DNA from: Candidatus Anderseniibacteriota bacterium
GTDB taxonomy: Bacteria > Patescibacteriota > Andersenbacteria > UBA10190
Direction: 5' to 3'
Length of the DNA: 64,000 nucleotides
Assembly (NCBI GenBank): GCA_040876835.1
Contig: JBBDOX010000018.1
Location: 82,396-146,395 of the forward strand
Part shown: positions 6,745 through 48,573 of the stretch, one piece after another
How positions within the stretch are numbered: the first letter of the stretch is position 1
Layout: every line of letters begins with the position of its first letter
The notes under the pieces: generated by a model
Seen by the model: the letters and a program-made list of their open reading frames with translations, nothing else
The model's database searches: none
What the model was told of the DNA's origin: nothing
Position numbers and translations under genes: made by a program

Positions 6745-6998
6745 TACAGGGCTCTATGTGGCCGTATATGTTATCGTTCGAAAGGGGTGACTTCGATAAA
6801 ATAGGAGGAGGGAGATGGTGTTTGTAAGGAGGAAGAAGAGAAAAAACCGCTGGCCAGGAATAGGCCCCAGAATACTACGCCCAAGGCTATCAGACCGGCT
6901 AAAAACCACCACGGCGTCATGTTTGGTCCTTTCTCCATATCTAGTTGACAAAAGCTATAGCTGGTGCTATTATATCATGTTTTAGTAATGAGGTCAAT

Positions 6999-7835
6999 AT
7001 GCGTGAAAAGATTGAATCAATAGAATACGTCTCGGAAAACAGTGCGGCCTATCTCCCGACGGCTGCAGTTGTGCCTGCTCCGGTTCCGGACGCTATCCCA
7101 GTTGTCCCCACCCCCACACCGGCGGGAACCCCCTCTTCTCGTCCATCCGCTACGGTGTTTATCGGTACATTTGTGTCAGCCTTTATGCTGGCCTTCGGTA
7201 TTATTATAGGCGGACTGACTGTCGCTCCGGTTGTCGCCCATCTATTTGTCTATGCTGATCAGGACTATGCTCCTCAGCTACCGCTGAGTGAAGAGCGCGA
7301 TGAGAGCGTGTTTGATATTACAAAAAATCCGGGTAAGAGACTGTATCCGTCTCTTGGTGTCGTAGAGAATATTGAAAGCGGCAACTGGATCCGTATTCCA
7401 TCTCTTGATGTAAACGTACCGCTGGTGTTAAGTCCGACTCTGGAAGATGTTGATGTGCTTAAAACCCTCGACCACGGTGCAGCTCTGTACCCCAACGGTG
7501 TATTACCGGGGCGTCTAGGTAATACCTTCATTGCCGCTCACAGCACCGGGGAGCCTTGGAAGGGCCTGTATCGCTTCGCCTTCCTGCGCATTAATGAACT
7601 CGAACCAGGTAATGTTATTCACCTGGATTATGATGGTGCCCGCTACACGTATGCGGTGCAGGAAAAAGAAATTGTGATTCCTACCCCCGATTTTCTGGTT
7701 ATCTCTGACCGCCCCGTTCCTACTATGAGTTTGATGGCCTGCTGGCCTCTATGGTCAACCCAAAAGCGCATGCTGATCCATGCTGAGCTGCAAAACGTTA
7801 CTCAACTGACAAGTCCTCCGGCTAGTGTAAGCTAA
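6999..7835 (+). CDS. Sortase family transpeptidase.
   Basis: His motif NTFIAAHSTG, Cys motif MSLMACWP (TLxTC-like) and a conserved Arg (KRMLIHAEL), with an N-terminal membrane anchor. The internal start at 6999 is preferred over the ORF-track start. Confidence 0.8.
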   Translation: MREKIESIEYVSENSAAYLPTAAVVPAPVPDAIPVVPTPTPAGTPSSRPSATVFIGTFVSAFMLAFGIIIGGLTVAPVVAHLFVYADQDYAPQLPLSEERDESVFDITKNPGKRLYPSLGVVENIESGNWIRIPSLDVNVPLVLSPTLEDVDVLKTLDHGAALYPNGVLPGRLGNTFIAAHSTGEPWKGLYRFAFLRINELEPGNVIHLDYDGARYTYAVQEKEIVIPTPDFLVISDRPVPTMSLMACWPLWSTQKRMLIHAELQNVTQLTSPPASVS

Positions 7836-8922: not shown

Positions 8923-10710
8923 ATGAGGCGCTTACTCGTATTTGCCATTACAGTGCTGGCATTTCCGCTCACCTCTTCTGCTCAGGAAGACTGGCGGATT
9001 GACCGGTTTCACAGCGATCTTGTAATTACCCTCAGCGGAGTTGTCCAGATCACCGAGACTATTGCGGTTGATTTTGGTTCTGTGGACAAGCACGGGATTT
9101 TTCGCAATTTGCCACATACCTACAGTAATCCAAATGAATCTGCGAGTACCTACACGCGTCTGGACGTAGAAGCTGTAACACGCGACGGATCTGACGAGCC
9201 ATATACCATCAGCCGTAACAGCTCACACATACAGATAAAGATTGGGGATCCCAGTACCGAAATTTCTGGAATGCATACGTATGTGATTACGTATACTGCA
9301 ACGGGAATACTGCGAGCCTTCGACGACTACGATGAGTTGTACTGGAACGTGACGGGCAATGACTGGGGAGTCCCCATCACGACCGCTTCTGCAACAATCA
9401 AAGTTCCTGCTGGCGACTTTACTCAGATCTCTTGTTATCGAGGCTATGCAGGAGCAACCGATGAATGCACCACCCAGCTCACTGACTCAACCTTAGTAGG
9501 CTTCTTAACGGGCGAGCTGCTGGTAGGCGAAGGGATGACGGTAGCTGCCGGTTTTGCGAAAGGTATTGTCCCAATTGTCACCATTGATCCTCCTCCTACG
9601 CTCCTTGATGCCCTTGGTTCCCCTGCCTTTCCTGTTACTGCGGTTACCCTATCGGCGTTGGGAATAGGACTCTTGCTGCGCCGGTGGTGGCTATATGGAC
9701 GTGATCGACAGTGGATTCGTAAAGGACTCCATGATCCGGACGCTAAAGAGGGCGTGATGCCACTCATAGGCAGAGAAACAATTAGCGTGGAATATGATTC
9801 GCCTGACAATCTGCGGCCGGCCGAGATTGGCGTTCTGGTGGATGAAAAAGCTCACACGCTTGATGTTTCCGCCACTATTGTCGATCTGGCTGTACGCGGC
9901 TACCTTACGATTACAGAGATTGAAAAGAAGTGGCTTTTTGGTAAAACAGATTATCAGCTGGATCGAACGGAAAAAGTGGATGAGGAGTTGCTGGAATATG
10001 AAAGACTGTTACTTAAAAAGCTGTTCTCCGATGGCCAAACAGTCAAGCTCTCTGATCTGAAGAACTCATTTTACAAAAGCCTTCGGGATGTGAAAGCGCA
10101 GCTCTATGCGGACGTCACTTCAAAACAGCTATTTGCAGCTAATCCGGAAACTGTACGCACGGTTTATTTCGGCGTTGCTGTGGGATTGGTAATTTTCGGG
10201 GTTGCTCTGTTCTTTGTAACCGGGGCTTTAATCTCCCGGGCGCAGGCAATTAATACCTACCACAGTATTCTTCCCGGCCTGGGCGTGGGGATGGCAGTAA
10301 CCGGAGCTCTGGCTTTAGCCATGGCCCGCGCCATGCCTCGAAAAACGGCGCACGGTCGAGAGCTATACCGACGCACCAAAGGATATGAACTATTTGTCAG
10401 TGGCACCGAGAAATACCGGCAGCCTTTTTTCGAACGTCAGAATATCTTCATGGAAGTACTGCCGTATGCGATGGTGTTTGGGGTGACTGATAAATTAGCG
10501 CAGGCGTTTAAGGAAATGGGTATTGAGCCCGTACAGCCGACTTGGTATGCGGGCGCACATCCGTTTAACGTTGCGCTCTTTGCTACAAATTTGAATAGCT
10601 TCTCCCAGTCACTTTCCAGTGCCATGGCATCGGCTCCCAGTAGTGGCGGTAGCGGAGGCGGTGGGTTCTCCGGTGGCGGTTTTGGTGGTGGCGGTGGTGG
10701 CAGCTGGTAG
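8923..10710 (+). CDS. DUF2207-type membrane protein with a Gly-rich C-terminal tail.
   Basis: Signal peptide, extracytoplasmic domain, transmembrane helices and a C-terminal SSGGSGGGGFSGGGFGGGGGGSW tail, as characteristic of DUF2207. Confidence 0.7.
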   Translation: MRRLLVFAITVLAFPLTSSAQEDWRIDRFHSDLVITLSGVVQITETIAVDFGSVDKHGIFRNLPHTYSNPNESASTYTRLDVEAVTRDGSDEPYTISRNSSHIQIKIGDPSTEISGMHTYVITYTATGILRAFDDYDELYWNVTGNDWGVPITTASATIKVPAGDFTQISCYRGYAGATDECTTQLTDSTLVGFLTGELLVGEGMTVAAGFAKGIVPIVTIDPPPTLLDALGSPAFPVTAVTLSALGIGLLLRRWWLYGRDRQWIRKGLHDPDAKEGVMPLIGRETISVEYDSPDNLRPAEIGVLVDEKAHTLDVSATIVDLAVRGYLTITEIEKKWLFGKTDYQLDRTEKVDEELLEYERLLLKKLFSDGQTVKLSDLKNSFYKSLRDVKAQLYADVTSKQLFAANPETVRTVYFGVAVGLVIFGVALFFVTGALISRAQAINTYHSILPGLGVGMAVTGALALAMARAMPRKTAHGRELYRRTKGYELFVSGTEKYRQPFFERQNIFMEVLPYAMVFGVTDKLAQAFKEMGIEPVQPTWYAGAHPFNVALFATNLNSFSQSLSSAMASAPSSGGSGGGGFSGGGFGGGGGGSW

Positions 10711-14944: not shown

Positions 14945-15337
14945 TCACCTGAGGCCTTTCAGGCCAGGTACAATATCTTGTATGTCTTTATATTCAATTA
15001 CTCCTTCGGCAACTCCCCGAACACTATCTTTGATTACTGTTCCTTCTTTTGCAATAAGGATTACTTTCTTACGCATTGCGTAGGCCATACCAGCTTCCAC
15101 TGCCCTGCCCGTTGGCTTATCCGTCATATCAAGGAGCAGATAATCAGACTTTTGTATCTCCTGGGCCGTGCGTTTCATTAATTCGTGAGCATCATTAAAC
15201 ACTTTCTCGTAGTGCTCCACATCACGAATAAAGCAAAAATCTTCGAATCCCGCCTCTTTTACCAATGAACAAAGGTGTTCAATTTCGTCCTTATTCTTAC
15301 CGTGCTCAAACGAAGCAGTAATAAATACTCTGGGCAT
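14945..15337 (-). CDS. NDT/DNPH1-like protein, paralog A.
   Basis: ...LLLDMTDKPTGRAVEAGMAYAMRKKVILI matches the NDT catalytic motif. It is about 80% identical at the amino-acid level to 22498-22893. The likely start is MPRVFITAS. Confidence 0.65.
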   Translation of the reverse strand: MPRVFITASFEHGKNKDEIEHLCSLVKEAGFEDFCFIRDVEHYEKVFNDAHELMKRTAQEIQKSDYLLLDMTDKPTGRAVEAGMAYAMRKKVILIAKEGTVIKDSVRGVAEGVIEYKDIQDIVPGLKGLR

Positions 15338-15342
15338 AATTA

Positions 15343-15798
15343 TCAATCCCAAAAATTGCAGTTAGTCTTATATGCTTCAATATATCTTGCTGTAGGTGCG
15401 AAAAGTGGTTGCGGAAGATTATCGAGATCGTACCAGTCCCAATTTTCACGCTTGTGAGGTTCGAGATTCTGCGGTTCTCCGCGTTCCCATTCTGCCAGTA
15501 AACCAATATCAATATAATGTTTGGGTGCGTATTTTGTTACGTTGCTGACGCATAGGAACCGAATATTTTTTATTGTAATTCCCGCTTCTTCCAGAGTCTC
15601 TCTTCGCGCAGTTTCGAAAAGAGATTCGAGTAACTCGACGTGGCCTCCGGTATTGGCGTACTCCCCTTCACCATGGGCGTTTTTACGCTTCCCAAGCAGT
15701 ACTTTATTTTCTTTTAATATCATTACTCCAACACCTACTTTTGGGTACGCAGCAGGTACTTCCTGGATGGCTACGCTACTAATGGGCTGGGTTTTCAC
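15343..15798 (-). CDS. NUDIX hydrolase, paralog A.
   Basis: Nudix box GGHVELLESLFETARRETLEEAGI. Paralogous to 22895-23359. Confidence 0.8.
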   Translation of the reverse strand: MKTQPISSVAIQEVPAAYPKVGVGVMILKENKVLLGKRKNAHGEGEYANTGGHVELLESLFETARRETLEEAGITIKNIRFLCVSNVTKYAPKHYIDIGLLAEWERGEPQNLEPHKRENWDWYDLDNLPQPLFAPTARYIEAYKTNCNFWD

Positions 15799-19808: not shown

Positions 19809-19851
19809 AACTATTGTATTATAGCACGAAATTACGGCTTTTGCAAGGAGT

Positions 19852-20142
19852 TTAGTTCAGCTTTCGATCGGCTCTATGTTTTTCGTAAGTGAAGTATTGG
19901 ACCAGGGTTATCCCCCACATAATGATCCCGACTGAGAATGAGGCTAATGGTAACCAGGCGCGAGTTAGAATAAAGAAACCAATTGAAGAAGCGTAAAAAC
20001 CAAGTGCTATGAGTATAGTGGTGAGCGGTTGTCCGGACCGCTTTTCCTGATAATTTTTCTTAATCTGGGCCGGGATACCAATAAGCACTAAGGCGAGCGA
20101 AAACAAACTTACGAGAATACTGAGAGTGAATTGAATATCCAT
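19852..20142 (-). CDS. PQ-loop / SemiSWEET-like small membrane protein (3 transmembrane helices).
   Basis: 96 aa. A ...GIPAQIKKNYQEKRSG segment after the first helix resembles the PQ-loop motif. Three hydrophobic helices. Confidence 0.4.
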   Translation of the reverse strand: MDIQFTLSILVSLFSLALVLIGIPAQIKKNYQEKRSGQPLTTILIALGFYASSIGFFILTRAWLPLASFSVGIIMWGITLVQYFTYEKHRADRKLN

Positions 20143-20210
20143 TGCTCTAGCATACCACCATCTAAATACGTCTCTATCAGCAAAGGTATGCGAGGTTGAA
20201 ACTTAATACC

Positions 20211-22025
20211 TTACCCCTTTCCTGATTTTCCCAACTTGCTCTCTATTTCCGGCATAATAATCTGTGATGGTTTTCTTTCAGGAATCTGGATGTTGTTCCT
20301 GTTAAACAAACCTATTCGATGAAGCTTGGAGAGTGCTTCTATATTCACTCCGCCAACCATCAGAAGCTTCTCAGCATTTTGCTTTTGCAACGCACGAGTA
20401 ATAAGCGCTTGCTCCATATATACAAGAGGCTGCGTGTTCGTGGCATGAGGTGATGTGTCGGAAAAGGATCCACCGAATCGGAACTGCCTGGCTGAACGAT
20501 CAATGGCAAGTTTCGCTGTTTCCTTATCATCCTTTGCCGGATTTGCCTCTTTTACACTGTCAAAAAACGCTTTCATACATTCCACTAACGTCCCGCCCAA
20601 CATTCTCCGCTGCAGAGCGCGGAGATAATGGACGTCTACCACTCGCTGATGCCCAAAAAGCTCTGCCTGAGTTTCCTCCTCAATTAGCACTGCGCCTGCT
20701 TCTGAATTCACGCTTGATCTATCTAACCCGACGTTTTCTGTAATCGACAACCCCAACCCCTCCTTGTTTTCATTCTGGATTACGTGTGTTATCTCATGAT
20801 CCAGAACAGCCACGGCACCTGTCGGGCTGGTGCTGGCTAGCGCACGATTAAACGCTTCAGGCACCTTAACCACTCCCTGTTGACTTACAACAATCAGACT
20901 TTCTTTGGAGGGGTCAACAACGATCTGCCACAACCCGTCAGGAGCCCGGCCGGCTCTATCAGGACTATATTCTTCGTGCTGGCTTAAAATACCATATTCC
21001 CGTAAGGCCTTTTTTGCCCATCCGATGAACTCTTCAGCCCCTATTTTGATTTCCCGTAACAACTGTGGATCAACATCCTTGAATGTATAGTCCTCCATGG
21101 GCTCGGGATTTTTTATCATTTGCTCTATCTCTTCAATTATTTCCTGCGTTCCTGGATTAACGGGAGAGTAGTCACCTCCGTACATGCGCTCTCCTACACC
21201 CTGCGCGAATTTATCCAACCGACTAGAGGCCCGGTACTGTCGCTCGTCTTCAAAAAGCTTTGGACCGCGAATATTTTTCTCCAATCTTGCGTATATATCC
21301 TGTGACCTTTCCTGCGGGGCTGTCCTGTGCTGCTTTAAGAACACAGCCGTGTTGGCATATTCTCCTACCAGCAGCTCGTTCAACCGCCGCCTGTGTAAAG
21401 TCAGCATAGTTAGTTTTGCCTGCGAGACGTGGTCCTCTTTTCCTATAAACAACTCTTCTTGCTCCTTGTAGTACTGCTTCAGCAGGCGCAATGATTGCAG
21501 TTTATCTGCCAAAACTTCGGGGTTACGAACTATGTTGAGCTTTGTCGGATTCTCAACGTTCTCGAGTGATGCATACCCGTTATTGGCAAACTGCTCAACT
21601 ACAAGCCCTTCAGAATATTGCCTGCTCTTGCCTGAAATTTTTTCCAGCACTTTGGCATCAATCCCCCGGTAGTCAAGGCCACAAAAGTATTCTTCTATAT
21701 CTGTAAGGGAGCGGAACTGTGGCACCTCTGCGCCCAAGGCTTCTGCTAGATAGCTTCTTCCTTCTTCTGTGAGGAAGTACTCTTCGTAAAACTCAGAGGT
21801 ATTTATTCGCATCTTCCATGCATGTTCAATTCCCTTAGCTGTCTCTCCTGATTTTAAAGGCAGGCTCTCACTCCTTGTGAGTTCCTTTTCGTATTCCAAA
21901 ACCTCTTCTCGCTCTTCGGGAGAAAGAATGAATTCCGGGTCTTTGGCTAGAGATTCAACGGTCTGTTGAATGTCCATTCCGGGTCTTAAGGGAAAAGCCT
22001 CTGGTTTAAATGATTCCAGGTTCAT
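20211..22025 (-). CDS. DUF1704 / QEGLA-motif (MATCAP-like) putative zinc metallopeptidase.
   Basis: HEITH (HExxH) is followed by ...NENKEGLGLS, a QEGLA-like segment. 604 aa. Confidence 0.45.
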   Translation of the reverse strand: MNLESFKPEAFPLRPGMDIQQTVESLAKDPEFILSPEEREEVLEYEKELTRSESLPLKSGETAKGIEHAWKMRINTSEFYEEYFLTEEGRSYLAEALGAEVPQFRSLTDIEEYFCGLDYRGIDAKVLEKISGKSRQYSEGLVVEQFANNGYASLENVENPTKLNIVRNPEVLADKLQSLRLLKQYYKEQEELFIGKEDHVSQAKLTMLTLHRRRLNELLVGEYANTAVFLKQHRTAPQERSQDIYARLEKNIRGPKLFEDERQYRASSRLDKFAQGVGERMYGGDYSPVNPGTQEIIEEIEQMIKNPEPMEDYTFKDVDPQLLREIKIGAEEFIGWAKKALREYGILSQHEEYSPDRAGRAPDGLWQIVVDPSKESLIVVSQQGVVKVPEAFNRALASTSPTGAVAVLDHEITHVIQNENKEGLGLSITENVGLDRSSVNSEAGAVLIEEETQAELFGHQRVVDVHYLRALQRRMLGGTLVECMKAFFDSVKEANPAKDDKETAKLAIDRSARQFRFGGSFSDTSPHATNTQPLVYMEQALITRALQKQNAEKLLMVGGVNIEALSKLHRIGLFNRNNIQIPERKPSQIIMPEIESKLGKSGKG

Positions 22026-22040
22026 ACGGTCAAATATACT

Positions 22041-22496
22041 CTACCTGGTAAGACTAGCGCTAACTTTGGCAGAAAGTCGTTCACACAGGGACACAATCTC
22101 CTCTCCTGCCACAGCTTCAGTCTTTGATACGTTTAAAAGTGAGAAAATATTTGCCCCTCGTTTATCCGCCGGCAGGTCTTCGGGTATAGCGACAATATGG
22201 AAATGAATATGGTTACATCCCCCTTTTTCGGCAAACAATACGCTGTATTCTTTTTGACTTTGAAGCTCTTCATGGAGGGCCTTTGCTGTTGCTCCTTGCA
22301 TGATTGCCAGCTCGCTTAACTCCTTAGTTGATAGCTCATGCAGCGCTTCAGCGTGCCGCTTGAGTACTATGACAAGCCAGCCCGGTATAGCTGATGAATT
22401 CACGTGTTCCACTTTCCAGTATGTACCTTCGTAAATAACCGGACCGGGAGTAAGAGATATTTCGCCTTTAAGCGCTTGGCATGATAGACAGTTCAT
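22041..22496 (-). CDS. HIT family nucleotide hydrolase.
   Basis: Histidine triad ...NHIHFHIVA and an N-terminal Cys-x-x-Cys. Confidence 0.8.
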   Translation of the reverse strand: MNCLSCQALKGEISLTPGPVIYEGTYWKVEHVNSSAIPGWLVIVLKRHAEALHELSTKELSELAIMQGATAKALHEELQSQKEYSVLFAEKGGCNHIHFHIVAIPEDLPADKRGANIFSLLNVSKTEAVAGEEIVSLCERLSAKVSASLTR

Positions 22497-22497
22497 A

Positions 22498-22893
22498 CTA
22501 GCTAATAATCGCCGTTAGCCGAGGCACAATATCCTCGATGTTTTTGTATTCAATCACGGTCTCGGAAATACCTCGAACACTGTCCTTAATCTCTGTCCCT
22601 TCTTGAGCGATAAGAATTACCCTTTTCCCCATTGCGTATGCCATGCCCGCTTCAGCCGCTCTGCCTGTTGGTTTATCTGTCATATCTAATAATAGATAAT
22701 CTGATTTTTGTATTTCTTCTGCTGTTCGCTTCATGAGATCATGGGCATCATCAAACACTTTTTCATAGTTTTCTATATCGCGAATAAAGCAGAAATCCTT
22801 AAAACCGGATTCTTTTACTAGCGCACAAAGATACTCAATCTCAGTCTTATTTCTTCCATGTTCAAACGAGGCGGTAATAAATATTCTTGGCAT
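22498..22893 (-). CDS. NDT/DNPH1-like protein, paralog B.
   Basis: ...LLLDMTDKPTGRAAEAGMAYAMGKRVILI. About 80% amino-acid identity to 14945-15337. Confidence 0.65.
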   Translation of the reverse strand: MPRIFITASFEHGRNKTEIEYLCALVKESGFKDFCFIRDIENYEKVFDDAHDLMKRTAEEIQKSDYLLLDMTDKPTGRAAEAGMAYAMGKRVILIAQEGTEIKDSVRGISETVIEYKNIEDIVPRLTAIIS

Positions 22894-22894
22894 A

Positions 22895-23359
22895 CTATTT
22901 ACTATCCCAAAAAGTAGAATTTGTTTTGTATGCCTCTATATACCTTGCCGTTGAAGCAAATAGTGGCTGCGGCAGGTTATCTAGATCATACCAACTCCAC
23001 GCTTCGCGTTTATCAGGCTCAAGTATCTGCGGCTCTCCACTTTCCCATTCAGCTAATAGCCCTATGTCGATGTAATGTTTGGGTGCATATTCAGTGATGT
23101 TACTCAGGCACAAGAAACGAATATTCTTAATTGTAATTCCCGCCTCTTCCATAGTTTCCCGACGAGCAGTTTCAAAAAGTGATTCTAAATGCTCAACGTG
23201 GCCACCAGTATTGGCATATTCCCCCTCACCGTGGGCATTTTTTCGTTTTCCAAGGAGCACTTTGCCATCTTTTAAGATCATCACACCAACACCAACTTTG
23301 GGATACTGCACAGTTACTTCTTTAATTGCGGTTTCACTCATGCCTCTACCCCATCGCAC
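22895..23359 (-). CDS. NUDIX hydrolase, paralog B.
   Basis: Nudix box GGHVEHLESLFETARRETMEEAGI. Confidence 0.8.
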   Translation of the reverse strand: MRWGRGMSETAIKEVTVQYPKVGVGVMILKDGKVLLGKRKNAHGEGEYANTGGHVEHLESLFETARRETMEEAGITIKNIRFLCLSNITEYAPKHYIDIGLLAEWESGEPQILEPDKREAWSWYDLDNLPQPLFASTARYIEAYKTNSTFWDSK

Positions 23360-23756
23360 CTATAATTGCTCCGGCAGCCAATAGTGTTACAAGCATGTTA
23401 CCGGCACCAATCCAGAAGAGTGTCATGCTGCCGCCCCAGATAGCACTGCCGAATTGTACAGGCACTACGAAACCAACCCATGCCAGGAAGGCTGTAGAAA
23501 TTCCGCTACTAACACTCAGGTCTCCTTTTCCTACTACAAACAAGGCTAGAACGTAAAACATGACTAGGCTGGCGATGAGCTGCATGAAATACAGCTTGCC
23601 CATCTTTTTCTTTTCTGCTGCCTGTTTTTCTGGACTCCATTTATTCATTCCTGCAGCTTTCTGAAACGTTTTCCCAAACAAGGGGCCGTACCAGATGCTA
23701 CCTATAACCATAGAGGCTATTGCTGCTGCTATTAACGATATATAACTAACTGGCAT
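23346..23756 (-). CDS. DUF1761 family membrane protein.
   Basis: ...GSIWYGPLFGKTF... start and 4 transmembrane helices. 136 aa. Confidence 0.55.
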   Translation of the reverse strand: MPVSYISLIAAAIASMVIGSIWYGPLFGKTFQKAAGMNKWSPEKQAAEKKKMGKLYFMQLIASLVMFYVLALFVVGKGDLSVSSGISTAFLAWVGFVVPVQFGSAIWGGSMTLFWIGAGNMLVTLLAAGAIIGAMG

Positions 23757-23852
23757 AAGGATTTTATAAAGGGTTAAATATGACTTTATTATCTACCTAA
23801 GGTCATATCTTTTGCTAGTCGACTCACCGCCTAATTAAAACTTGCAAAGGTT

Positions 23853-24215
23853 TTAAGGAATCAGATTCTGCAAATCCGATACTGCCTGTTCCCAATTTTC
23901 GAAAGCAATAGCACGATCATCAATATACGCGATGGCTGCAGGCTTGTTGTTTGTTAGTTCATGGTAATGCTCGCCTTCAATGAATTTGTTTTCTAGTAAC
24001 CACGTTTCAACAGCCTTTCTTTGTTTGTCCATGTCGGGAAACTTTGGGTTCAGCCTCGCGGTCACTATGGCGATTCTAAACCCCCGTGCTACAAGGTTGG
24101 TAAGGGCTTCGTGTGATTCTTTCACTGGAATGTCATACATCGCTCCGCCATTCCAACCCTCAGAATAGGCATGGATAACTCCATCTAAATCTATGGCGAT
24201 TGTCTTTTTCTTCAT
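23853..24215 (-). CDS. Small HAD-superfamily hydrolase (deoxyribonucleotidase-like).
   Basis: Motif I IAIDLDGVIH. 120 aa, similar in size to NT5C or phage dNMPase. Confidence 0.55.
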   Translation of the reverse strand: MKKKTIAIDLDGVIHAYSEGWNGGAMYDIPVKESHEALTNLVARGFRIAIVTARLNPKFPDMDKQRKAVETWLLENKFIEGEHYHELTNNKPAAIAYIDDRAIAFENWEQAVSDLQNLIP

Positions 24216-24278
24216 CAGTAGGGGGTTTAGAGGCTAAGGTAGAACCTTATTGGAACACTTTTATGCAGTTGACAACGC

Positions 24279-24950
24279 TTACGATTTTTCCCGCATAGCC
24301 TCACTTACTAGACTGGGTGTTATTTCTTCTACACTCTCAACTATTATATCAGCGTCTTTTACCTTATCTCTTGTCACCGTATGAAGCACAGCAATGCATT
24401 TGGCACCAGACGCTTTAGCTGCCGCCACGCCAGACGGCGTGTCCTCAACAATCAATATTTGATCTTTTGATAAGCCAACCCCAGAAATTCCTTTTAAGTA
24501 CCCTTCTGGATCTGGTTTGCCTTTCTGAACATCGTCGATTGTTACAACAACTTCGAAATAATGCAGTAAATTCTCTTCTTCCAATATAGGGATCACCTCG
24601 GAACGCGGGGATGCAGTAACCAATCCCAGTCTGTAATTTTCACTTAGCCTTGATAAGACAGTCTTGATAGCGGGGTGGATAATACTCTCCTCTTTAACAA
24701 GTTCGGCGTATTCTTTAGCTTTCTGCTCTGTAAGCGCTTTAGCTGAACATCCTTTCAACTTTGCACTAAATGCATGTATAAGATTCTCGAATCCTGCCTG
24801 ACTAGTTCTTCCCAAGCAATGTTCGTTGAATAAATCATGAGTAAGTTCAACGCCTAAATTTGACATGATATTTACCATGACTTTTTCGTGAATATGCTCA
24901 TCATCTACAATAACGCCGTTGTAATCGAACAGGATCCCGTACTTTTTCAT
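24279..24950 (-). CDS. HAD-IA family phosphatase (beta-phosphoglucomutase-like).
   Basis: Motif I LFDYNGVI, a ...GKPDPE... segment and an ...EDTPSGV motif III region. Confidence 0.75.
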   Translation of the reverse strand: MKKYGILFDYNGVIVDDEHIHEKVMVNIMSNLGVELTHDLFNEHCLGRTSQAGFENLIHAFSAKLKGCSAKALTEQKAKEYAELVKEESIIHPAIKTVLSRLSENYRLGLVTASPRSEVIPILEEENLLHYFEVVVTIDDVQKGKPDPEGYLKGISGVGLSKDQILIVEDTPSGVAAAKASGAKCIAVLHTVTRDKVKDADIIVESVEEITPSLVSEAMREKS

Positions 24951-25015
24951 GACTGCAGCATATCAGGTTTAAACCGTCTTTACCCCTTTTAAACTACCCT
25001 TACCTTCAATTTGAG

Positions 25016-25048
25016 CTATCCGGAATTTCCGGATAGTTGGCTTTTTGC
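25016..25048. promoter_or_regulatory. Perfect 10+10 palindrome CTATCCGGAA-T-TTCCGGATAG followed by a T-run. Possible operator or terminator.
   Basis: Inverted repeat seen directly in the intergenic region 24951-25091. A T-tract follows only on the plus side, while both flanking genes are on the minus strand. Confidence 0.35.
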
Positions 25049-25091
25049 TTAGCTCTTTTGTTTTATAGATGTTGGCTATATGTTCATAGCA

Positions 25092-25658
25092 TCAATGTAC
25101 CAGGCTCAAGCGTTCTTGAGTTAACCCTTCTAATTCATACACCCACCCTGGTTGCCACTGCCAGGGCGCTGTTACTACTTCACGCAAACCTACGCCCTTG
25201 ATCCAGTGCTCTAAACCATACTGCGTAGCTCGGTGACCAATAATCATTACTCTTTTGCCATCGTATTTCTCTAACAAGTCTTCTAAAAAATTCTTCATTC
25301 GCTCTGATGTTTGTTCATAGCTTTCCCCGCTGGGAAACGGCTTTTTAATTCTCTCTGCTCGCTGTTCCTTTATTTCGTCGGCTGGATGCTGAGTTAGATC
25401 TCCGTAGTCACATTCTCGCAACCTTTTGTCTTGAATGATTGGAATGCTCCTGCCACTAAATGCGATCTCTGCTGTTTTATATGAACGTTGAAGATCGGAG
25501 CAGAATATGGCATCGAGTTCTTCGCTGATATAGCGGATGCCAAGCTCTTTCGCTTGTTGAAGGCCTAGCTTCGAAAGCTCGACATCGTTATGTCCAGATG
25601 ATAAATCTTGCTCGTTATCAAGGCTGGTTGCATGAGATTCAAAAATGATTTTAATCAT
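25092..25658 (-). CDS. Histidine phosphatase (phosphoglycerate mutase family)-like protein.
   Basis: ...LQRSYKTAEI... and ...IGHRATQ... resemble PGAM-family motifs, but the N-terminal RHG motif is divergent (ESHATS). Confidence 0.5.
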   Translation of the reverse strand: MIKIIFESHATSLDNEQDLSSGHNDVELSKLGLQQAKELGIRYISEELDAIFCSDLQRSYKTAEIAFSGRSIPIIQDKRLRECDYGDLTQHPADEIKEQRAERIKKPFPSGESYEQTSERMKNFLEDLLEKYDGKRVMIIGHRATQYGLEHWIKGVGLREVVTAPWQWQPGWVYELEGLTQERLSLVH

Positions 25659-25728
25659 ATTGGTAGGGACATATAGATCAATTTAGAGTCGCTTTCGAAG
25701 ATTTAAGCTGTATCAAATTATCAGTCTA

Positions 25729-26268
25729 TTAACATGTCTTGATCCAATTAGCTATTCCTCTAGCAACTTCCTCTGGTGTAAATCGTGCTGTATCAAATAT
25801 TTTACAATTATAATCTTGGCAAATATTCCTTAGCTGTGATGCAAAGGAGATGTTCTGTTTAACACTTTCCTCTAGCGAAAGCCCCGTAGTTCTTGCCCAT
25901 TCGTTTTGCATTTCCTTAGTTGAGAGTCTTTGTCTAAATCTCTCTTCAATTTTTAATGAAGAAACTTCTAGTAAAGCATAGTGAGGCTCTATATTTTCTA
26001 GAAGATCTTTGTTTGCTTCTACCTCACTAGGGATTGAAATTCCGCAAACTACTGCAGTTTTCTCTTGTCCTGCATCCCTTATTCCCTCTTCAAGCCAATA
26101 TCTAGTTTCTTGCTTTCTCCAATTTTCCGAAACATTATCAGGAACACCCCTTTGGTCAAAGTCGTATACGGAAAAATTTACTGGCAACAGCTTTTTAAGG
26201 TATGGGATAATCGTAGTCTTCCCAGACGTACTTACTCCTGTTATGAAAAACATTCTACCTTTAGACAC
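25729..26268 (-). CDS. P-loop NTPase, probable nucleoside or nucleotide kinase.
   Basis: Walker A FFITGVSTSGKTT. 179 aa, small kinase-like. Confidence 0.55.
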   Translation of the reverse strand: MSKGRMFFITGVSTSGKTTIIPYLKKLLPVNFSVYDFDQRGVPDNVSENWRKQETRYWLEEGIRDAGQEKTAVVCGISIPSEVEANKDLLENIEPHYALLEVSSLKIEERFRQRLSTKEMQNEWARTTGLSLEESVKQNISFASQLRNICQDYNCKIFDTARFTPEEVARGIANWIKTC

Positions 26269-26458
26269 TTGTTTGCAGGGAGTATTAGAAGCAACTCGAA
26301 CTTATTTTGAGCGTAACTCAAACGGCAATTAATGCACAACGACTTACCGCGCACGAGCGTGAGGTGCCCAGCCCCACGATGGCATACGAGGTTGTCCACT
26401 CAGCCGGAACTCATTGTGTTGGTTTACACTTGTAGAACTTCAAGTTTAGAATAAAATT

Positions 26459-27055
26459 ATGGGAGAAAAAGTGCCAAACTCATTCAATAGTTATGAGCGA
26501 GAAAGAAAGCTATTCTTACCTTTCATTGGCGTACTAGCTGGCTTACCTCTAACGGGGAAATCTACATTAGGTGAAGCCGTAGCTGCTAAGTCGAATGTCA
26601 TTTTTTTGGACGTAGATGCAGTACGGTATAAAGATGAATCTACTGATTCAGCTAGAGGAACAGAAGAGGAAGAAAAACGGGCAATGGAGACAGCCTATGA
26701 CCAGAATCACAGAATAGCCCAGGAGATGCTTGGTTTGGATCGTCCAGTGCTTTTAGCTGCCACATATTCCCGAGAAAGTTATCACGAGCAGTTAAAGAAA
26801 CTAATCGAAACTGCGCGCAAGCCATTAGTTTTCTTTTTACTAGAAGCATCTGATGATAATGTGCGTAACCGCATAGAGAGCCGTGCAGCCTCTAACAATC
26901 TTTCTAATATCCGTACATATGAGGATTATGCGAGCGTAAGAGACCGATACCAAAAGATGGTAGATGCGCCTGTTGTAACGATCGATACGGATCAGCCACT
27001 CGAACACAGCCGTGAGGCTATTTTCAAAACTCTTCAGCCGTATAGAATCGACTAA
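26459..27055 (+). CDS. P-loop kinase (AAA_33 / zeta-toxin-like fold).
   Basis: Walker A LAGLPLTGKSTLG. 198 aa. Confidence 0.55.
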   Translation: MGEKVPNSFNSYERERKLFLPFIGVLAGLPLTGKSTLGEAVAAKSNVIFLDVDAVRYKDESTDSARGTEEEEKRAMETAYDQNHRIAQEMLGLDRPVLLAATYSRESYHEQLKKLIETARKPLVFFLLEASDDNVRNRIESRAASNNLSNIRTYEDYASVRDRYQKMVDAPVVTIDTDQPLEHSREAIFKTLQPYRID

Positions 27056-27076
27056 TTGCCTTTGGGGATTAAAGTT

Positions 27077-27337
27077 CTAATCAAACGAAATAACCTGGAA
27101 ACCATGCTGGTTAACGTCTTCGTTTGACCAAAATTTCAAATCCCTGGTTTTTAGTATGTGGGTCGCCTTCTTCTCAATTACTCTCCCAGTATATTCCTCT
27201 GTCTTCGGATCCCATTCTTTAAGGACCAATATATCACCCGGTTTGCATTCCCAATTCGCTAAACGAAGTTCGTATTTTTTAGTTCCGTCAATAACACGCT
27301 GGAAGTATTCAGGCCAGACTTTTTTCTCGATTTTCAT
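27077..27337 (-). CDS. DUF3850 (ASCH/PUA-like) domain protein.
   Basis: MKIEKKVWPEYFQRVIDGTKKYELRL...GDILVLKEWDP matches the DUF3850 consensus. The start at 27337 is preferred. Confidence 0.6.
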   Translation of the reverse strand: MKIEKKVWPEYFQRVIDGTKKYELRLANWECKPGDILVLKEWDPKTEEYTGRVIEKKATHILKTRDLKFWSNEDVNQHGFQVISFD

Positions 27338-27339
27338 AA

Positions 27340-27407
27340 GCAGGGATATGCATACCAAGTTAGAGCCTTATTGCACCAGCTTGGGAGGCAGTTTGCAATA
27401 CCCGCGC
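27340..27407 (-). repeat. Decayed copy (gene-start remnant) of the 5' coding segment of the 27982-28863 gene.
   Basis: About 81% nucleotide identity to 28759-28825. The remnant ...AGIANCLPSWCNKALTWYAYPCL* parallels ...ADVANSFPNWRNEVLTWSIYPCQ in the intact gene. There is no start codon and an in-frame stop. Confidence 0.5.
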
Positions 27408-27490
27408 TTTTTCCTCGACCTTGACTTTATTATCATACTATCCTATGGTAGTAAACTTGAAATCAACACGCCAAAGAAAAGGAATATCCA

Positions 27491-27922
27491 ATGTTCATTC
27501 AACCACTCACACTCGATGATGTTGCCGAAGTTTGCCGAATTGGATTGGCCGAGTCAGCTTTCGAGGTTTCAGAGAGTGATACTTTCTGGACACCAGATCA
27601 GCTCTCAAAATGGGTTGAAACCGGTGAGGATGTGCTTCTCGTTGCCAAAGACAATGATCATAAGATCATCGGATTTGCATTGAGCACACTGCACCGGCCG
27701 ACCGGAAAAGCAACGTGGGAGAATCTCTATGTGAATCCCACTGCACGAAACCAGGGAGTCGGCATGGCTCTTACAGAGGAGATGACGCGGCAGCTCCACG
27801 CGAAGGGTGCAAGTTACATCTGCTTCTTCGTGAGAGCCGAGAAGGACGATGAAATTACTTACTTCACCAATCGAGGATTTACGCAGGGATACAACTTCGT
27901 TTGGTTCGGAAAATATTTGTAA
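27491..27922 (+). CDS. GNAT family N-acetyltransferase.
   Basis: ...RNQGVGMALTEEM... acetyl-CoA binding motif. 143 aa. Confidence 0.75.
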   Translation: MFIQPLTLDDVAEVCRIGLAESAFEVSESDTFWTPDQLSKWVETGEDVLLVAKDNDHKIIGFALSTLHRPTGKATWENLYVNPTARNQGVGMALTEEMTRQLHAKGASYICFFVRAEKDDEITYFTNRGFTQGYNFVWFGKYL

Positions 27923-27981
27923 TCCACACCAAGGACCAGCAAGCCGGGAGTCAAATCTCGGCTTTTTCATTTATAATGACT

Positions 27982-28863
27982 TCAGAAATCCTTGAACTGA
28001 TGTTTTGACAAATCAAATAGCAACTTACTTTCGAGATCATAATAGGAATTTTCATATATGTTATCTGGATTCTTGAATTCAAATATATTCTTTTGGTAAA
28101 GGTATCCCTCCGTCATGAGGGGTTTACCTGGGTAGCAGTTTAATATCCATTTTTCTCGGTGTTGAATATAGTCATTTGGAAATGAGAACTTTCCTTTTGC
28201 AATCAGGTAAAGCACTAAGCTCTCTTCTAAAATAAAGTTAGCTTGGTTCTCATTCACCTCTTTATCACCTGAATCAATTTTTACATATTCTTGCAGCTCT
28301 TGATCGTCTCTATACATTTTCTTAATTTCCGAGAAGTAAGTTGTAAATTCCCGCGAGTTGAGTAGAAGCTGCCCCCACGTCAGAAATGTATACGCTTTCG
28401 GAATAAGATCTCGACGTTTTTTAAGCACATTAAGAAACGAATTTTTGTGCTGTAGCATAGACTCAACATACTTCGCTCTTAATGCTTGCGGTGTGTCATT
28501 CGCTGTATGCATGTACAAATAATCGCTGTACAAGATGATCGCACCAATTCCGTCTGTTTTTACAATTTTTCTTAAAAATTCCTCCAGATATGAGAAATAA
28601 TTCTCTGCTCTTTGGGTGTTAGAAATTTTACTCATCGAGATTCCAAATACCACCAGCCCCTCGTCGTGGGGAAACTGGTTAATATCGTGAGGTTTCAGGT
28701 TTTCGTTCATATCCTTGAGTGTGTCATATCCGAAACTAAATTTTAATTTTCCCGATTGGCAGGGATATATAGACCAAGTTAGAACCTCATTACGCCAGTT
28801 TGGGAAGGAGTTTGCAACATCCGCGCCTGGATCTATATCTTCTCTCCCCATGTGCTGACCCAT
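27982..28863 (-). CDS. Hypothetical protein (293 aa), AT-rich. It is the source of the repeated N-terminal segment.
   Basis: Complete ORF. Codons about 13-35 (28759-28825) are the intact copy of the repeat. No family recognised. Confidence 0.5.
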   Translation of the reverse strand: MGQHMGREDIDPGADVANSFPNWRNEVLTWSIYPCQSGKLKFSFGYDTLKDMNENLKPHDINQFPHDEGLVVFGISMSKISNTQRAENYFSYLEEFLRKIVKTDGIGAIILYSDYLYMHTANDTPQALRAKYVESMLQHKNSFLNVLKKRRDLIPKAYTFLTWGQLLLNSREFTTYFSEIKKMYRDDQELQEYVKIDSGDKEVNENQANFILEESLVLYLIAKGKFSFPNDYIQHREKWILNCYPGKPLMTEGYLYQKNIFEFKNPDNIYENSYYDLESKLLFDLSKHQFKDF

Positions 28864-29468
28864 TTTGTGTCTCTGCGGCCACGTTCATCCTCCATAACTT
28901 CGGAGCGAATAATTTGAAAACCAGCATTCTCCAGTAGCTTCTCCATTTCTATTGGTGAGTAATAAACGAAGAATCTCTTTTTATTATCAGACAATTTTTC
29001 CTCCCGGTATTCTTCACCCTCTCCTTGTTTCACCCTAATGTGTACTTTCCCACCTGTCTTGAGAATACGCCAGAAGTTCTGAAGGATTGACGGTACGTCT
29101 TCTCGCTCGGCATGTAGTAAAACAGCATTGGCCCAGATAGCATCAAATTCGCCGTCGGGAAAGTCAAGATGGCGCATGTCTTTATTGAAAAATTGTGCTT
29201 GCGGAACTAATTGTTCTGCTTCGCGCAGAAAGCTGTCTACGACATCAGTTCCGACCACGGTCATGCCAGCGTCAACAAAAACTTTAGCATCCCTCCCGCC
29301 CGCAGTGCCGACTTCAAGGACTTTGCTGCCTTGACGAAGCTTCGCAATAAACTCAGGCAATTCTTGCGGGAATGAATCAGAAACGCCAGCAAGATATTTA
29401 CTGCTGATTTGGTCATAAACACTCTTTGTATTGCCGTATTTATCCACTAGTAGTGTTTTATAGATCAA
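28833..29468 (-). CDS. Class I SAM-dependent methyltransferase (small-molecule type). The 5' end is non-canonical.
   Basis: SAM-binding ...VLEVGTAGGRDA...DAGMTVVGTDV. The only available start is TTG, immediately after a decayed repeat remnant. Confidence 0.6.
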   Translation of the reverse strand: MIYKTLLVDKYGNTKSVYDQISSKYLAGVSDSFPQELPEFIAKLRQGSKVLEVGTAGGRDAKVFVDAGMTVVGTDVVDSFLREAEQLVPQAQFFNKDMRHLDFPDGEFDAIWANAVLLHAEREDVPSILQNFWRILKTGGKVHIRVKQGEGEEYREEKLSDNKKRFFVYYSPIEMEKLLENAGFQIIRSEVMEDERGRRDTKWVSTWGEKI

Positions 29469-29492
29469 GTTAGAACTCTACTTAGCCAGTAA
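29461..29492 (-). repeat. Third, partial copy of the N-terminal segment, upstream of the methyltransferase gene.
   Basis: About 30 nt match 28771-28800. The homologous frame carries stops (RVLT*SIK against EVLTWSIY). Confidence 0.4.
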
Positions 29493-29550
29493 TCTTTTTC
29501 CAGAATCATTCATACCTCTTTCCTCCCTTGAACCTTTAGTTCATCGTGAT

Positions 29551-31278
29551 TTAAATACTCGGTCCTACGTCCTCATTTGTAGTTCCTGGAGGAGCAACCA
29601 AGCGTATGTAGGAAAATGGAATAACTACTCCCCCCGTCTCATTACTCCACTGCACTGTAGCGATAAAAGGATTGATTTCTCTTCTCTGTTTGAGCCTGTA
29701 TTCTGCTATATGATCAACCTCATCCGGATTTCTCGGGAATATATACTTAACTATACCTTCTCTGCCATCGCTTGGATTAATGACGCGTTGCCCATTCCAC
29801 TTTCTCTGTGCTTTTGCAAGGAAAGCTGCCCTCCCAAACTTATTATCCGGCACATTCTTAGTTCCGTTACCTTTCAAGATGAAACTAATCATTCTAGAAC
29901 TAAGTTTCTTCGTAGGTGGAATATCTACACCGTACCCCGTGAGAAACGCTTCCTGTTTCTTGGTCGGTCGCATTGTTTCCGGCAACTGTTTTTTACCGGG
30001 AGATGCTTTTTCTCTTTCTTTTCTTCTTTTTTCGGCCTTTTCTTTTTTTGCCTGAGCCTCCTTAGCCTGAAGCTCCTCCACCCTTTTACGTTCCTCTTCT
30101 GGATTTTCTCGGAGCGCTCTCCTTTCCATAAATCGCTTGCGCGTTTCATTGAAGAGTTCTTTAATCCGAATTACTCCGCCTGAACTTTCTATAGCTTCCC
30201 GAAAAGATTTAAATCGTAATGGGCTTTCTGCTGGCTGAACGGCTACAGGGCTCTCATATTTGCGACTAGAAGTTTCGTTCGTAAGTTTGGGAATAAAAGT
30301 GTCGGAAGGGAGTTTGTAAATACAAACTGGTTTTTCTAGTCGGTCCGCGACTGATTTGTCAACCTCTAAGATAAGTCTTTGTTCCCCTCTGTCCCCATAG
30401 GATTCGTAATTTATTTTGAACTGAAAATTCTCTTCAAAGCGACTCCGTATAAGTCTGCGCGCAGCTGCGTGTGCGATATCCTCTGATGCCCACACACGTA
30501 AATTTTTATCGTTGGTGCGAATACTATATTCCCGATGCGGCTTTATTTCTTTTAGGCTTGTTTTCAAGCTTGCATGGTAAAGGAAAGGCGGCTTTTCAGC
30601 TTTTTCTGGACTTGATACCTCTTCAAAATTCTTATGCGTGTTTGAACTCTGTTTTTTCTGATCACCAACCAGCTTCCATTCATATTGGGTAACCTTGTCT
30701 GGTTCCAAATTTTGATGCCTATATCCAGTCGGGGTTCCTAATTTATCTAAGTTAATATTTTCAGAGGTACACCCTACTACATACTCGTGGTAGTGAATCA
30801 AATCTCTAAGTCCAGGATATTTCCAGCCATCTTCTGGCCTGTATTCCTTATCGTATTGCCGAGGATGCTTTAACGTGCTTGGATTTACATTTACTATCCC
30901 CGCCTCCGTTAAGGCTTTCATCGCCGCCTGTGCTGCGCTTTCTCCCTCTTGTATCCGCTTACCTATTTCTGTATGCTTCTCGTCTTCAGTATCGCCATGC
31001 AAGACTCTCTTCGCTTCAACTAACTTCCAAAGACTTCCTTTGTCATCGGTATATTGAATATCAACAAGAGCAACTGATACTTCTCGTACTAGCTCTCCTT
31101 CTTTCTCGACGAGAGCTGCATACCCCGCTTCAACTTCTCTCTCAAGATCTTTAAGGGTTTGGGCTGCGGGATATTCTTCCGATCCCCATCTTTGGTAAGG
31201 AATATTATATTTATCAAGCAGCTCTCTGACACTTGGTAAATTTTCAGGATTGTTAATCCTTGGTTCTCTTTCTGACAT
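29551..31278 (-). CDS. Large hypothetical protein (575 aa) with a Lys/Glu-rich coiled-coil stretch.
   Basis: Complete ORF containing KRVEELQAKEAQAKKEKAEKRRKEREK. No catalytic motif recognised. It lies immediately 3' of tRNA-Trp. Confidence 0.5.
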   Translation of the reverse strand: MSEREPRINNPENLPSVRELLDKYNIPYQRWGSEEYPAAQTLKDLEREVEAGYAALVEKEGELVREVSVALVDIQYTDDKGSLWKLVEAKRVLHGDTEDEKHTEIGKRIQEGESAAQAAMKALTEAGIVNVNPSTLKHPRQYDKEYRPEDGWKYPGLRDLIHYHEYVVGCTSENINLDKLGTPTGYRHQNLEPDKVTQYEWKLVGDQKKQSSNTHKNFEEVSSPEKAEKPPFLYHASLKTSLKEIKPHREYSIRTNDKNLRVWASEDIAHAAARRLIRSRFEENFQFKINYESYGDRGEQRLILEVDKSVADRLEKPVCIYKLPSDTFIPKLTNETSSRKYESPVAVQPAESPLRFKSFREAIESSGGVIRIKELFNETRKRFMERRALRENPEEERKRVEELQAKEAQAKKEKAEKRRKEREKASPGKKQLPETMRPTKKQEAFLTGYGVDIPPTKKLSSRMISFILKGNGTKNVPDNKFGRAAFLAKAQRKWNGQRVINPSDGREGIVKYIFPRNPDEVDHIAEYRLKQRREINPFIATVQWSNETGGVVIPFSYIRLVAPPGTTNEDVGPSI

Positions 31279-31316
31279 ATATCAACCCTATCACTAGGTT
31301 CTAATTTATTCCACGT

Positions 31317-31390
31317 TGGCAGGGGTGGAGAGAATCGAACTCCCGCTATCCGCTTTGGAGGCGGATGTCATGCCACTAGACCACACCCCC
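31317..31390 (-). tRNA. tRNA-Trp (anticodon CCA), with CCA encoded.
   Basis: Cloverleaf folds by hand. Anticodon stem TCCGC/GCGGA with loop CTCCAAA, T-arm GGGAG-TTCGATT-CTCTC, acceptor GGGGGTG/CACCCCT with a G1:U72 wobble. Confidence 0.8.
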
Positions 31391-48467: not shown

Positions 48468-48573
48468 TGGCTCTCATCATATCACCTCAAGAAGACGTTT
48501 GCAGCTAGGGCGCCTCCAGTATATATGGCCTTGAAACATCTGCTCCCACTTGGGGTATACTAAACTACTACCT

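Follow-up and report, generated by a model that had tools for sequence, protein, structure and literature searches.

How a series of small genes that are unrelated to one another comes to carry the same short stretch of DNA immediately ahead of their start codons is the question raised by the locus described here, which lies in a 64-kb stretch (the window) of a metagenome-assembled genome of Candidatus Andersenbacteria, a member of the candidate phyla radiation (CPR, Patescibacteria) as judged from protein names. In this study, we show that a repeated segment, which we call the module, occurs five times in the window and that the same motif stands directly 5′ of the start codons of small accessory genes in related Andersenbacteria. 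We give an even chance to the interpretation that the module is a non-coding expression adaptor, providing a stop, a restart and sometimes a promoter, whose repetition also mediates gene exchange. Within a hypervariable array anchored at tRNA-Trp, the module takes up the space that separates the stop codon of an accessory gene from the start codon of its successor. According to this proposal, its 5′ block would end translation arriving from whatever gene sits upstream. The next gene would then be started either by termination-reinitiation or by initiation on the A/U-rich leader independently of a Shine-Dalgarno (SD) sequence, and the long form of the module would additionally supply transcription. 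Recombination between copies would insert, delete or swap whole genes, each time restoring the stop/start context.

A repeat in front of unrelated genes

The two copies with the strongest similarity, A and B, align over 68 nt without gaps between 27340-27407 and 28759-28826, with 56 of 68 positions matching (82.4% identity in the repeat search), and a BLAST search with one long copy against the whole 64-kb window retrieves the other at E = 4.8e-6. The 12 differences between them are 10 transitions and 2 transversions. The repeat reported at these places by an earlier note on this DNA is therefore real, and it is not low-complexity sequence. A third, shorter copy reported there (copy C) is weak when taken alone (18 nt at 94% and E = 0.018 by BLAST; E = 0.28 by nhmmer) though it can be considered validated, because in three other genomes the same motif directly precedes the methyltransferase orthologue. 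The repeat search grouped a 25-nt core at 25663, 27340, 28759 and 29450, and two copies beyond those of the earlier note, D and E, were recognized. Copy E was matched at 24222-24277 (E = 0.011) by a profile of the two long copies. A nine-copy profile run on the 64 kb returned five copies only, on the minus strand only, between 24.2 and 29.5 kb and hence within 5.3 kb.

The copies in the window are lettered E, D, A, B and C in rising coordinate order (Table 1), E′ being the counterpart of E in the relative L009. The module-bearing genes are all on the minus strand, and the repeat is read in gene direction, from high to low coordinates. In four copies (A, C, D and E) only 0-4 nt separate the 3′ end from the start codon. 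Copy A ends 2 nt ahead of ATG 27337 of the DUF3850/ASCH gene, and since the 5′ neighbor of that gene, a GNAT gene, is on the opposite strand, copy A must contain or adjoin the DUF3850 promoter. Copy E begins 2 nt past the HAD stop codon (24279-24281) and ends 3 nt before ATG 24215, and copy B begins 6 nt past the methyltransferase stop codon (28833-28835).

Table 1. Positions of the module copies and of the features around them, in coordinates of the window
Feature	Positions	Strand	Remarks
Variable array	19850-31316	-	about 18 small accessory genes between the conserved C39-peptidase/MurJ flank and tRNA-Trp
120-aa gene	23853-24215	-	behind copy E; three other genes in its place in L009
Copy E, long-type, spacer 2 nt shorter	24216-24285	-	long-form profile E = 6e-16
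Histidine phosphatase gene	25092-25658	-	behind copy D
Copy D, short form	25659-25694	-	3′ end 4 nt from ATG 25658 (histidine phosphatase)
DUF3850/ASCH gene	27077-27337	-	behind copy A
Copy A, long form	27338-27412	-	divergent intergenic region between GNAT (+) and DUF3850/ASCH (-); long-form profile E = 2.6e-21
242-aa gene, unknown function, no Pfam match	27982-28710	-	homologue alignment
Copy B, long form	28754-28831	-	repeat search, BLAST, long-form profile
Class I SAM methyltransferase gene	28833-29447	-	copy C upstream, copy B downstream
Copy C, short or decayed form	29448-29492	-	3′ end adjoins GTG 29447; L014 and L015 have orthologous copies
Remnant of GNAT gene 3′ end, 5′ of copy C	29493-29532	-	homologous in L014 to the end of an intact GNAT gene ahead of the methyltransferase
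Leader of 575-aa gene, GGAATAAATTAGAACCTAGTGATAGGGTTGATAT	31279-31316	-	diverged module relative by eye, unscored; weak basis
tRNA-Trp(CCA)	31317-31390	-	head of the array, same orientation; last bases CCCCTGCCA plus next A match the module 3′ block

The close relatives compared were L009 (NCBI GCA_040881505.1) and L008/L010 (Logan SRR27977658), and the more distant ones L014, L015 and L020, in which the identity of the methyltransferase protein is 67%, 68% and 60%, respectively; L007 is 100% identical to the window, belongs to the same organism and adds no information. In L008/L010, L009, L014, L015 and L020 the motif directly precedes the start codons of small accessory genes. It reads CCTTCTACCTTGACCTATAAACCCCTGCAA-ATG at L008 1143-1171, AAAGTTCTAACTTGTGCTCTAGACCCCTCTGCTA-ATG at L015 3405-3438 and AATAAAGTTCTAACTTCATCCCTAAACCCCTGCAA-ATG at L020 6492-6525. 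The methyltransferase orthologue is preceded by the module in L014, L015 and, in decayed form, L020. In L014 the module stands before genes 4588, 5941 and 8269, with its long form ahead of 3589 and 4129 (long-form profile, E = 8e-17 and 9e-19). Three methyltransferase orthologues have clear copies; their coding DNA shows 66-70% identity, and the block GTTCTAACTTG is retained at 11 of 11 or 10 of 11 positions. Because this block outlasts the coding DNA in identity, the module is under selection and is not a recent local copy. In L021, whose methyltransferase is 52% identical and whose GC content is 34%, the module is absent, which marks a phylogenetic limit. Strict motif scans of public collections gave one match among genome contigs (Pedobacter), three among metagenome contigs and four among viral contigs, which is the level expected by chance, and each of these matches is missing either the rest of the module or a gene-start context.

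It had been proposed in the earlier note that the segment is the 5′ coding part of one gene, encoding residues about 13-35 of a 293-aa protein and present as one intact and two decayed copies. The protein does not begin there. Of the 20 relatives of the 293-aa open reading frame (ORF), the 14 that were aligned all begin at its Met52, and its first 51 residues have no counterpart. On this alignment the true start of the gene is ATG 28710, the ORF (to 28863) being over-extended by 51 codons, and copy B is intergenic because the homologues begin at Met52, so that the segment falls outside the real 242-aa protein. When the supposed frame is applied, 5 of the differences between A and B fall on first, 6 on second and 1 on third codon positions, the opposite of a coding pattern. 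At the DUF3850 gene, where a decayed frame had been seen, the sequence simply ends 2 nt before ATG 27337. Nor do the data fit a decayed family of tandem paralogues, since the genes behind the copies are mutually unrelated (DUF3850, the 242-aa family, Methyltransf_11, His_Phos_1 and the 120-aa protein) and in five other CPR contigs (L001, L002, L004, L005 and L006) the region upstream of the 242-aa gene homologue is free of the module, save one weak look-alike in L001. What speaks for coding remnants is that one frame is open through both A and B and that the NCBI annotation, a 289-aa protein, takes in copy B. Of 6 copies checked by hand, no more than 3 have the TTG of the motif in the reading frame of the start that follows. 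A selfish element of the miniature inverted-repeat transposable element (MITE) or repetitive extragenic palindromic (REP) type was rejected as well, as there are no terminal inverted repeats and no dispersal, with five copies on one strand within 5.3 kb. We regard remnants of one gene's 5′ end, or such a selfish repeat, as hardly credible.

The start of the methyltransferase is affected in a similar way. Its annotated start, TTG 29468, lies inside the motif, and its homologues begin 3-7 residues further in, so that GTG 29447 is probably the true start. Two annotated starts can thus be corrected, from 293 to 242 aa in the one gene and from TTG to probably GTG in the other. Ahead of the methyltransferase, a mini-ORF of 12 codons runs from ATG 29504 to TAG 29471 behind a strong GGGAGGAAAGAGG and in frame with the methyltransferase; it is the GNAT remnant of Table 1 that reads in this way, with its TAG in stop site 1 of the motif.

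Two further places in the array recall the module. At 25077-25125 (minus strand), the DNA 3′ of the histidine phosphatase gene resembles a decayed module (GGGTTAACTCAAG...) and includes a truncated start, ATGAACATATAG, which corresponds to the next gene of L008, intact there (ATG 2324). The window phosphatase is 188 aa long versus 179 aa in L008, a frame difference making its C-terminus 9 residues longer. At 26254-26300 (minus strand), 5′ of a P-loop kinase of 174/179 aa, GCTTCTAATACTCCCTGCAAACAAGTG is module-like with about 11 nt deleted midway, and is below significance in the profile searches.

Anatomy of the module and gene starts

The module measures 35-75 bases, a form of 30 nt also occurring, and its long form measures 68-75 nt. 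It begins with a 5′ block of consensus AATAAGGTTCTAACTTGATCT, for which an alignment of 17 copies from six genomes gives AATAAnGTTCTAACTTGATCT, and this block holds three stop-codon sites in three different frames. Among 18 copies, the first site is TAA in 7, TAG in 3 and TGA in 1, the second TAA in 12, TGA in 2 and TAG in 1, and the third TGA in 6, TAA in 3 and TAG in 1. In tight junctions, ORFs that arrive from upstream do end at these sites: at site 1 in L008a, L014-4588, L015-4061 and copy C, at site 2 in L014-5941 and L009-3727, and at site 3 in L008b and L009-4315. The middle of the module is A/T-rich (TATAAA, TATATA, TGCATA and similar) and is the part that is least conserved. The 3′ block, CCCTGC(C/A)A, lies right against the start codon, which follows TCTAAC at 19-27 nt, in most cases at 21-23 nt.

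The long copies (A, B, E and two in L014) have an extra upstream half in which only TTG, TG, AAT and two adjacent A columns of the spacer never vary. It consists of TTGCAA, TTGCCA or TTGTCA, followed by 17 bp, the last three of which are TGn, and then by nnnAAT, a layout that looks like an extended -10 sigma-70 promoter. These boxes are also an argument for seeing in the copies only a promoter or leader that has been propagated, with no stop or exchange role and with breakpoints that are coincidental. Putative mobile promoters (Matus-Garcia et al., 2012; PMC3488235) are non-coding sequences of 50-100 nt, at least 80% identical to one another, that a genome carries ahead of genes without mutual homology; the working definition asks for at least 50 nt located within about 150 nt of the start codons. 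Copies A and B, with 68 nt, 82.4% identity and positions 2 and 48 nt upstream of non-homologous genes, fall within this definition (PMC3488235), and conservation reaches to a few bases before the start codon as it does in putative mobile promoters. The module is unlike them in that it is clustered in one tRNA-linked array, contains stops in several frames, is kept at 60% protein identity, which is not the behavior of a recent copy, and coincides with one break in gene content between strains. Moreover, its short form of about 30 nt fills entire co-directional gaps (15-36 nt) without any -35 region, and upstream ORFs end inside it. A propagated promoter and nothing else is, in our judgment, quite unlikely.

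In the window, L001, L009, L014 and L020, 82 gene starts were surveyed. A TAnnnT box lies 5-7 nt before the start in 26 of the 82 versus 5.9% of background ATGs, and its TGn extension (TGnTAnnnT) is found in 11 of the 82 versus 0.8% of the background, while only 10 of the 82 starts have an SD-like motif. It seems that leaderless-type promoters are what these genomes depend on for the most part. Starts behind a module show no SD sequence and no TAnnnT box and form a third class, which would fit a part for the module in translation start at genes without a leaderless promoter of their own. Within the flank of the array, the promoter of the C39-peptidase gene (TTGCAA-17-TGcTATAAT-9-ATG, window about 19809-19850) is identical in L009. 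Pairing of the module 3′ block with helix 45 of the 16S rRNA or with the anti-SD tail was weighed from textbook sequences only, and was dropped, helix 45 being stably folded.

It was also considered whether the module acts as a structured RNA, be it a cis-regulatory leader, a small RNA or a tRNA-like processing signal. The long form has the size of a tRNA (68-75 nt), a T-loop-like GTTCTAA is accompanied by a 3′ end like that of tRNA-Trp, and a closing stem of 11 bp with one mismatch can be drawn by hand in A and B, although the predicted fold contains it in A and not in B. Calculations gave no support to such a structure. The folding energies of the copies are ordinary on either strand (z from -0.92 to +1.35), RNAalifold predicted no pairs in six long copies, and neither the repeat search nor folding revealed dyad symmetry or an inverted repeat within or around the copies. 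Hand-drawn helices leave 71% of the bases paired, a pairing that 149 of 500 shuffles reach, and 96 of 500 reach the covariation score. A T-arm-like mini-hairpin shows no compensatory change in 17 copies, in agreement with the earlier statement that no covarying stem is present. Rfam gave no match in the module, in the window or at six loci, and a tRNA or tRNA-like gene at the copies was rejected, as ARAGORN and Rfam returned four true tRNAs only and nothing at E <= 10 in 25.5-29.7 kb. A structured RNA is very improbable.

Gene exchange and the tRNA-Trp gene

The comparison with L009 gives the clearest view of what happens at a module. L009 and the window are 97.9% identical through the end of the HAD gene and copy E as far as CTCTAAA(C)CCCCT; the last 6 nt or so before the ATG differ, and the gene behind E′ is unrelated to the 120-aa gene of the window (E = 1.9). 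L009 has three genes at that site (UCP014422, a glyoxalase and an aminoglycoside-resistance-like gene), and homology resumes 64 nt before DUF1761. Recombination between copies, made possible by the same 30-70 nt ahead of many unrelated genes, would explain why the two strains differ in gene content at copy E. L008, in turn, is 89% identical to the window from copy D through the phosphatase gene, and has a different gene upstream, of which only the P-loop aligns. In two to four genomes each, the glyoxalase, methyltransferase and phosphatase genes retain their module while standing behind different neighbors, and in L014 the methyltransferase and the 575/212-aa gene follow one another in the opposite order to that in the window. 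By these comparisons the array is shuffled gene by gene, with module copies at the joints. The earlier suggestion of recombination at a gene-start segment, with cassette-like replacement of what follows, therefore holds in part: it gains from the break at copy E in L009 and from the swapped neighbor of the phosphatase gene in L008, though the segment is non-coding and a single breakpoint is clean. At the place where L009 homology resumes there is a perfect inverted repeat of 11 bp, ATATGACCTTAGGTAGATAATAAAGTCATAT, just 5′ of DUF1761 (23775-23805, minus strand; L009 about 1610-1640). It is conserved in both and could be an operator or a terminator.

The tRNA-Trp gene offers a second view of the same array: in the window, L001 and L020 the array follows directly on the 3′ side of tRNA-Trp, with which it shares its orientation. 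The sequence CCCCTGCCAA, found in the 3′ block of copy B and of the L009 copy, is identical to the final nine bases of tRNA-Trp together with the base that follows them. In local alignments compared with shuffles, E′ matches the last 16 bases of tRNA-Trp plus the next base at 15 of 17 positions (p = 0.0005) and copy B matches the tRNA-Trp 3′ end with p = 0.0065, while seven other copies give no significant match. As a group, tRNA-Trp 3′ ends have a mean score of 13.7-15.0 versus 9.1-13.5 for ten other tRNAs (summed p = 0.002, over copies that are non-independent). Furthermore, L014 has a module copy at the place occupied in the window by the tRNA 3′ end, just 5′ of a homologous leader (GGAATAA...) and gene. 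That gene, of 212 aa, corresponds to the 575-aa gene adjoining tRNA-Trp in the window (29551-31278, minus strand), whose first 200 codons or so and leader are 70% identical to it in DNA. A TGnTAnnnT box stands in the leader of the 575-aa gene, 6 nt 5′ of its ATG. A search of 5.8 billion proteins gave no full-length homologue of the 575-aa protein, which is also without a Pfam domain.

These relationships are a lead to an att-like site as the origin, or even the present nature, of the module. In its full form, this explanation holds that the module is a dedicated site for site-specific recombination, derived from the tRNA-Trp 3′ end, and that single-gene cassettes are inserted at the tRNA and then stacked, as in an integron-like or tandem-island platform, by a recombinase encoded elsewhere in the genome or on the donor. 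Besides the position of the array, the tRNA matches and the L014 copy, it is favored by the fact that the copies are all direct repeats and that homology between E and E′ breaks within the last 6 nt or so of the module. Against it, no integrase or recombinase (Phage_integrase) domain was found in the 30 window ORFs scanned or in the Pfam lists of L001, L009, L014 and L020, and the module has neither dyad symmetry nor a hairpin. The identity with the tRNA extends over 9-10 nt only and is absent in C, D, E, L8b and three short L014 copies, the one clear replacement has no copy at its far end, and a recombination site alone leaves the fixed distance to the start codon and the pattern of stops unexplained. 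A dedicated site is the main rival of the adaptor, and we consider it rather unlikely. Less probable again, though not negligible, is a broader notion that would join both functions: Andersenbacteria, and perhaps other CPR bacteria, might carry at tRNA-Trp a gene-capture platform unrelated to IntI and attC, in which a tRNA-derived adaptor of 30-75 nt would be the recombination site as well as the stop/start signal and sometimes the promoter.

Other tRNA genes and their surroundings were also noted. In L001, the 350 nt or so between tRNA-Trp and the first array gene (6765-7100) contain at least five strong hairpins (e.g., GGTCGCGCAAGCGACC, CCGCCAGCTGGCGG), with no called gene and no Rfam match at the gathering threshold. 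At L004 1001-1090, L021 about 9930-10000 and L001 4739-4826, a protein gene starts 8-40 nt past the 3′ end of a tRNA, which suggests that tRNAs in several CPR contigs are often co-transcribed with downstream mRNAs.

With regard to the expression adaptor itself, several observations count against it. The blocks that are best conserved, TTCTAAC and CCCTGC, are not classical promoter or ribosome-binding features, and the TATA-like middle falls where conservation is lowest. All three frames are closed within the 5′ block in only 1 of 18 copies. What the stop codons offer in favor of the adaptor is an average of 2.0 frames closed per 21-nt block versus 1.20 +/- 0.15 in shuffled blocks, a value equaled by 0 of 2000 shuffles, but the copies are related by descent, so that this statistic overstates their independence. 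In the long form, the -10-like hexamers (TGCAAT, CGTAAT, TGGAAT and TCCAAT) are without the usually essential A at -11 and are not flagged by a consensus scan, and in copy E the spacer between the hexamers is 15 bp. Copy B ends 48 nt 5′ of ATG 28710, and this ATG has an SD sequence of its own, AAGGA. At the level of gene exchange there is only one clean recent breakpoint, that between E and E′, and the other end of this replacement (window about 23820) does not coincide with a module copy. Both promoter activity and restart are inferred here from the DNA sequence.

The array itself brings together genes for HIT, nucleoside deoxyribosyltransferase, NUDIX, DUF1761, HAD and histidine phosphatase proteins, two P-loop kinases, ASCH, GNAT and methyltransferase proteins, and orphans. 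From about 22 kb its GC content is 41-45% versus 45-52% in the rest of the window. A pair of NUDIX and nucleoside-deoxyribosyltransferase-like genes occurs twice in the window, at 14945-15798 and at 22498-23359 (both on the minus strand); L009 2884-3645 is 78% identical to the copy at 22.5-23.3 kb and 72% to that at 15.0-15.7 kb. Far from the array, an ORF of 1172 aa is followed by one of 388 aa with a weak Baseplate_J match (E = 3e-5) at 48550-53224 (plus strand), and this region may be part of a phage-tail-like or contractile-injection cluster.

Known systems and meaning for CPR genomes

Arrays of single small genes separated by a recurring element are best known from integrons. The attC sites of integrons measure 57-141 nt and consist of imperfect inverted repeats (R″-L″...L′-R′) that fold into a hairpin, with a GTTRRRY core, and clusters of attC sites lacking integron-integrases (CALIN) do not require IntI. 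The array described here is like integron cassette arrays in that mostly co-oriented, unrelated single small genes are joined by an element recurring just before the next start, with content that varies between strains, and its functions are those typical of cassettes (GNAT, methyltransferase, NUDIX, glyoxalase, aminoglycoside-resistance-like and toxin-like). It is unlike them in that the module is conserved in sequence and not in structure, and has no inverted repeats, no foldable hairpin, no GTTRRRY at its boundary and no IntI nearby. The only RYYYAAC-like string in the module, TTCTAAC, lies in the 5′ block and is without an inverted partner. Comparison by eye of the module with the consensus of attC, dif/Xer-like, integration host factor, sigma-54 and extracytoplasmic function sigma sites gave no convincing match.

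With islands that target tRNA genes the array shares variable DNA at a tRNA 3′ end, in the same orientation, and it may share direct repeats that copy that 3′ end. It differs from such islands in its units, which are single genes of 0.3-1.7 kb, in a tRNA match that spans 9-17 nt and occurs in a minority of copies, and in that no integrase was seen. In the vsa, vsp and vpma loci of Mycoplasma, recombination in a conserved 5′ segment exchanges gene bodies; the genes are paralogues with a shared signal peptide, a Xer-like recombinase is linked to them, and inversions are involved. A gene-start segment common to many genes is what the module has in common with these loci, whereas the genes behind it are unrelated enzymes, its copies are direct repeats and no recombinase is linked. 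A diversity-generating retroelement was rejected, since the differences between A and B are not adenine-specific and no reverse transcriptase was seen in the Pfam results.

The genomes of CPR bacteria are tiny and the way in which they gain and lose accessory genes is poorly understood, and here the single recent difference between strains that lent itself to mapping shows gene content changing at the module. The module can also serve as a search motif for such arrays in further genomes. If it is a recombination site, it would represent a gene-cassette system of a new type. If it is an expression adaptor, it would show how internal genes are expressed in genomes whose starts mostly look leaderless and of which few have an SD sequence. 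Should the notion of a tRNA-derived platform be true, an adaptor of this kind would suit a genome that rarely uses SD sequences.

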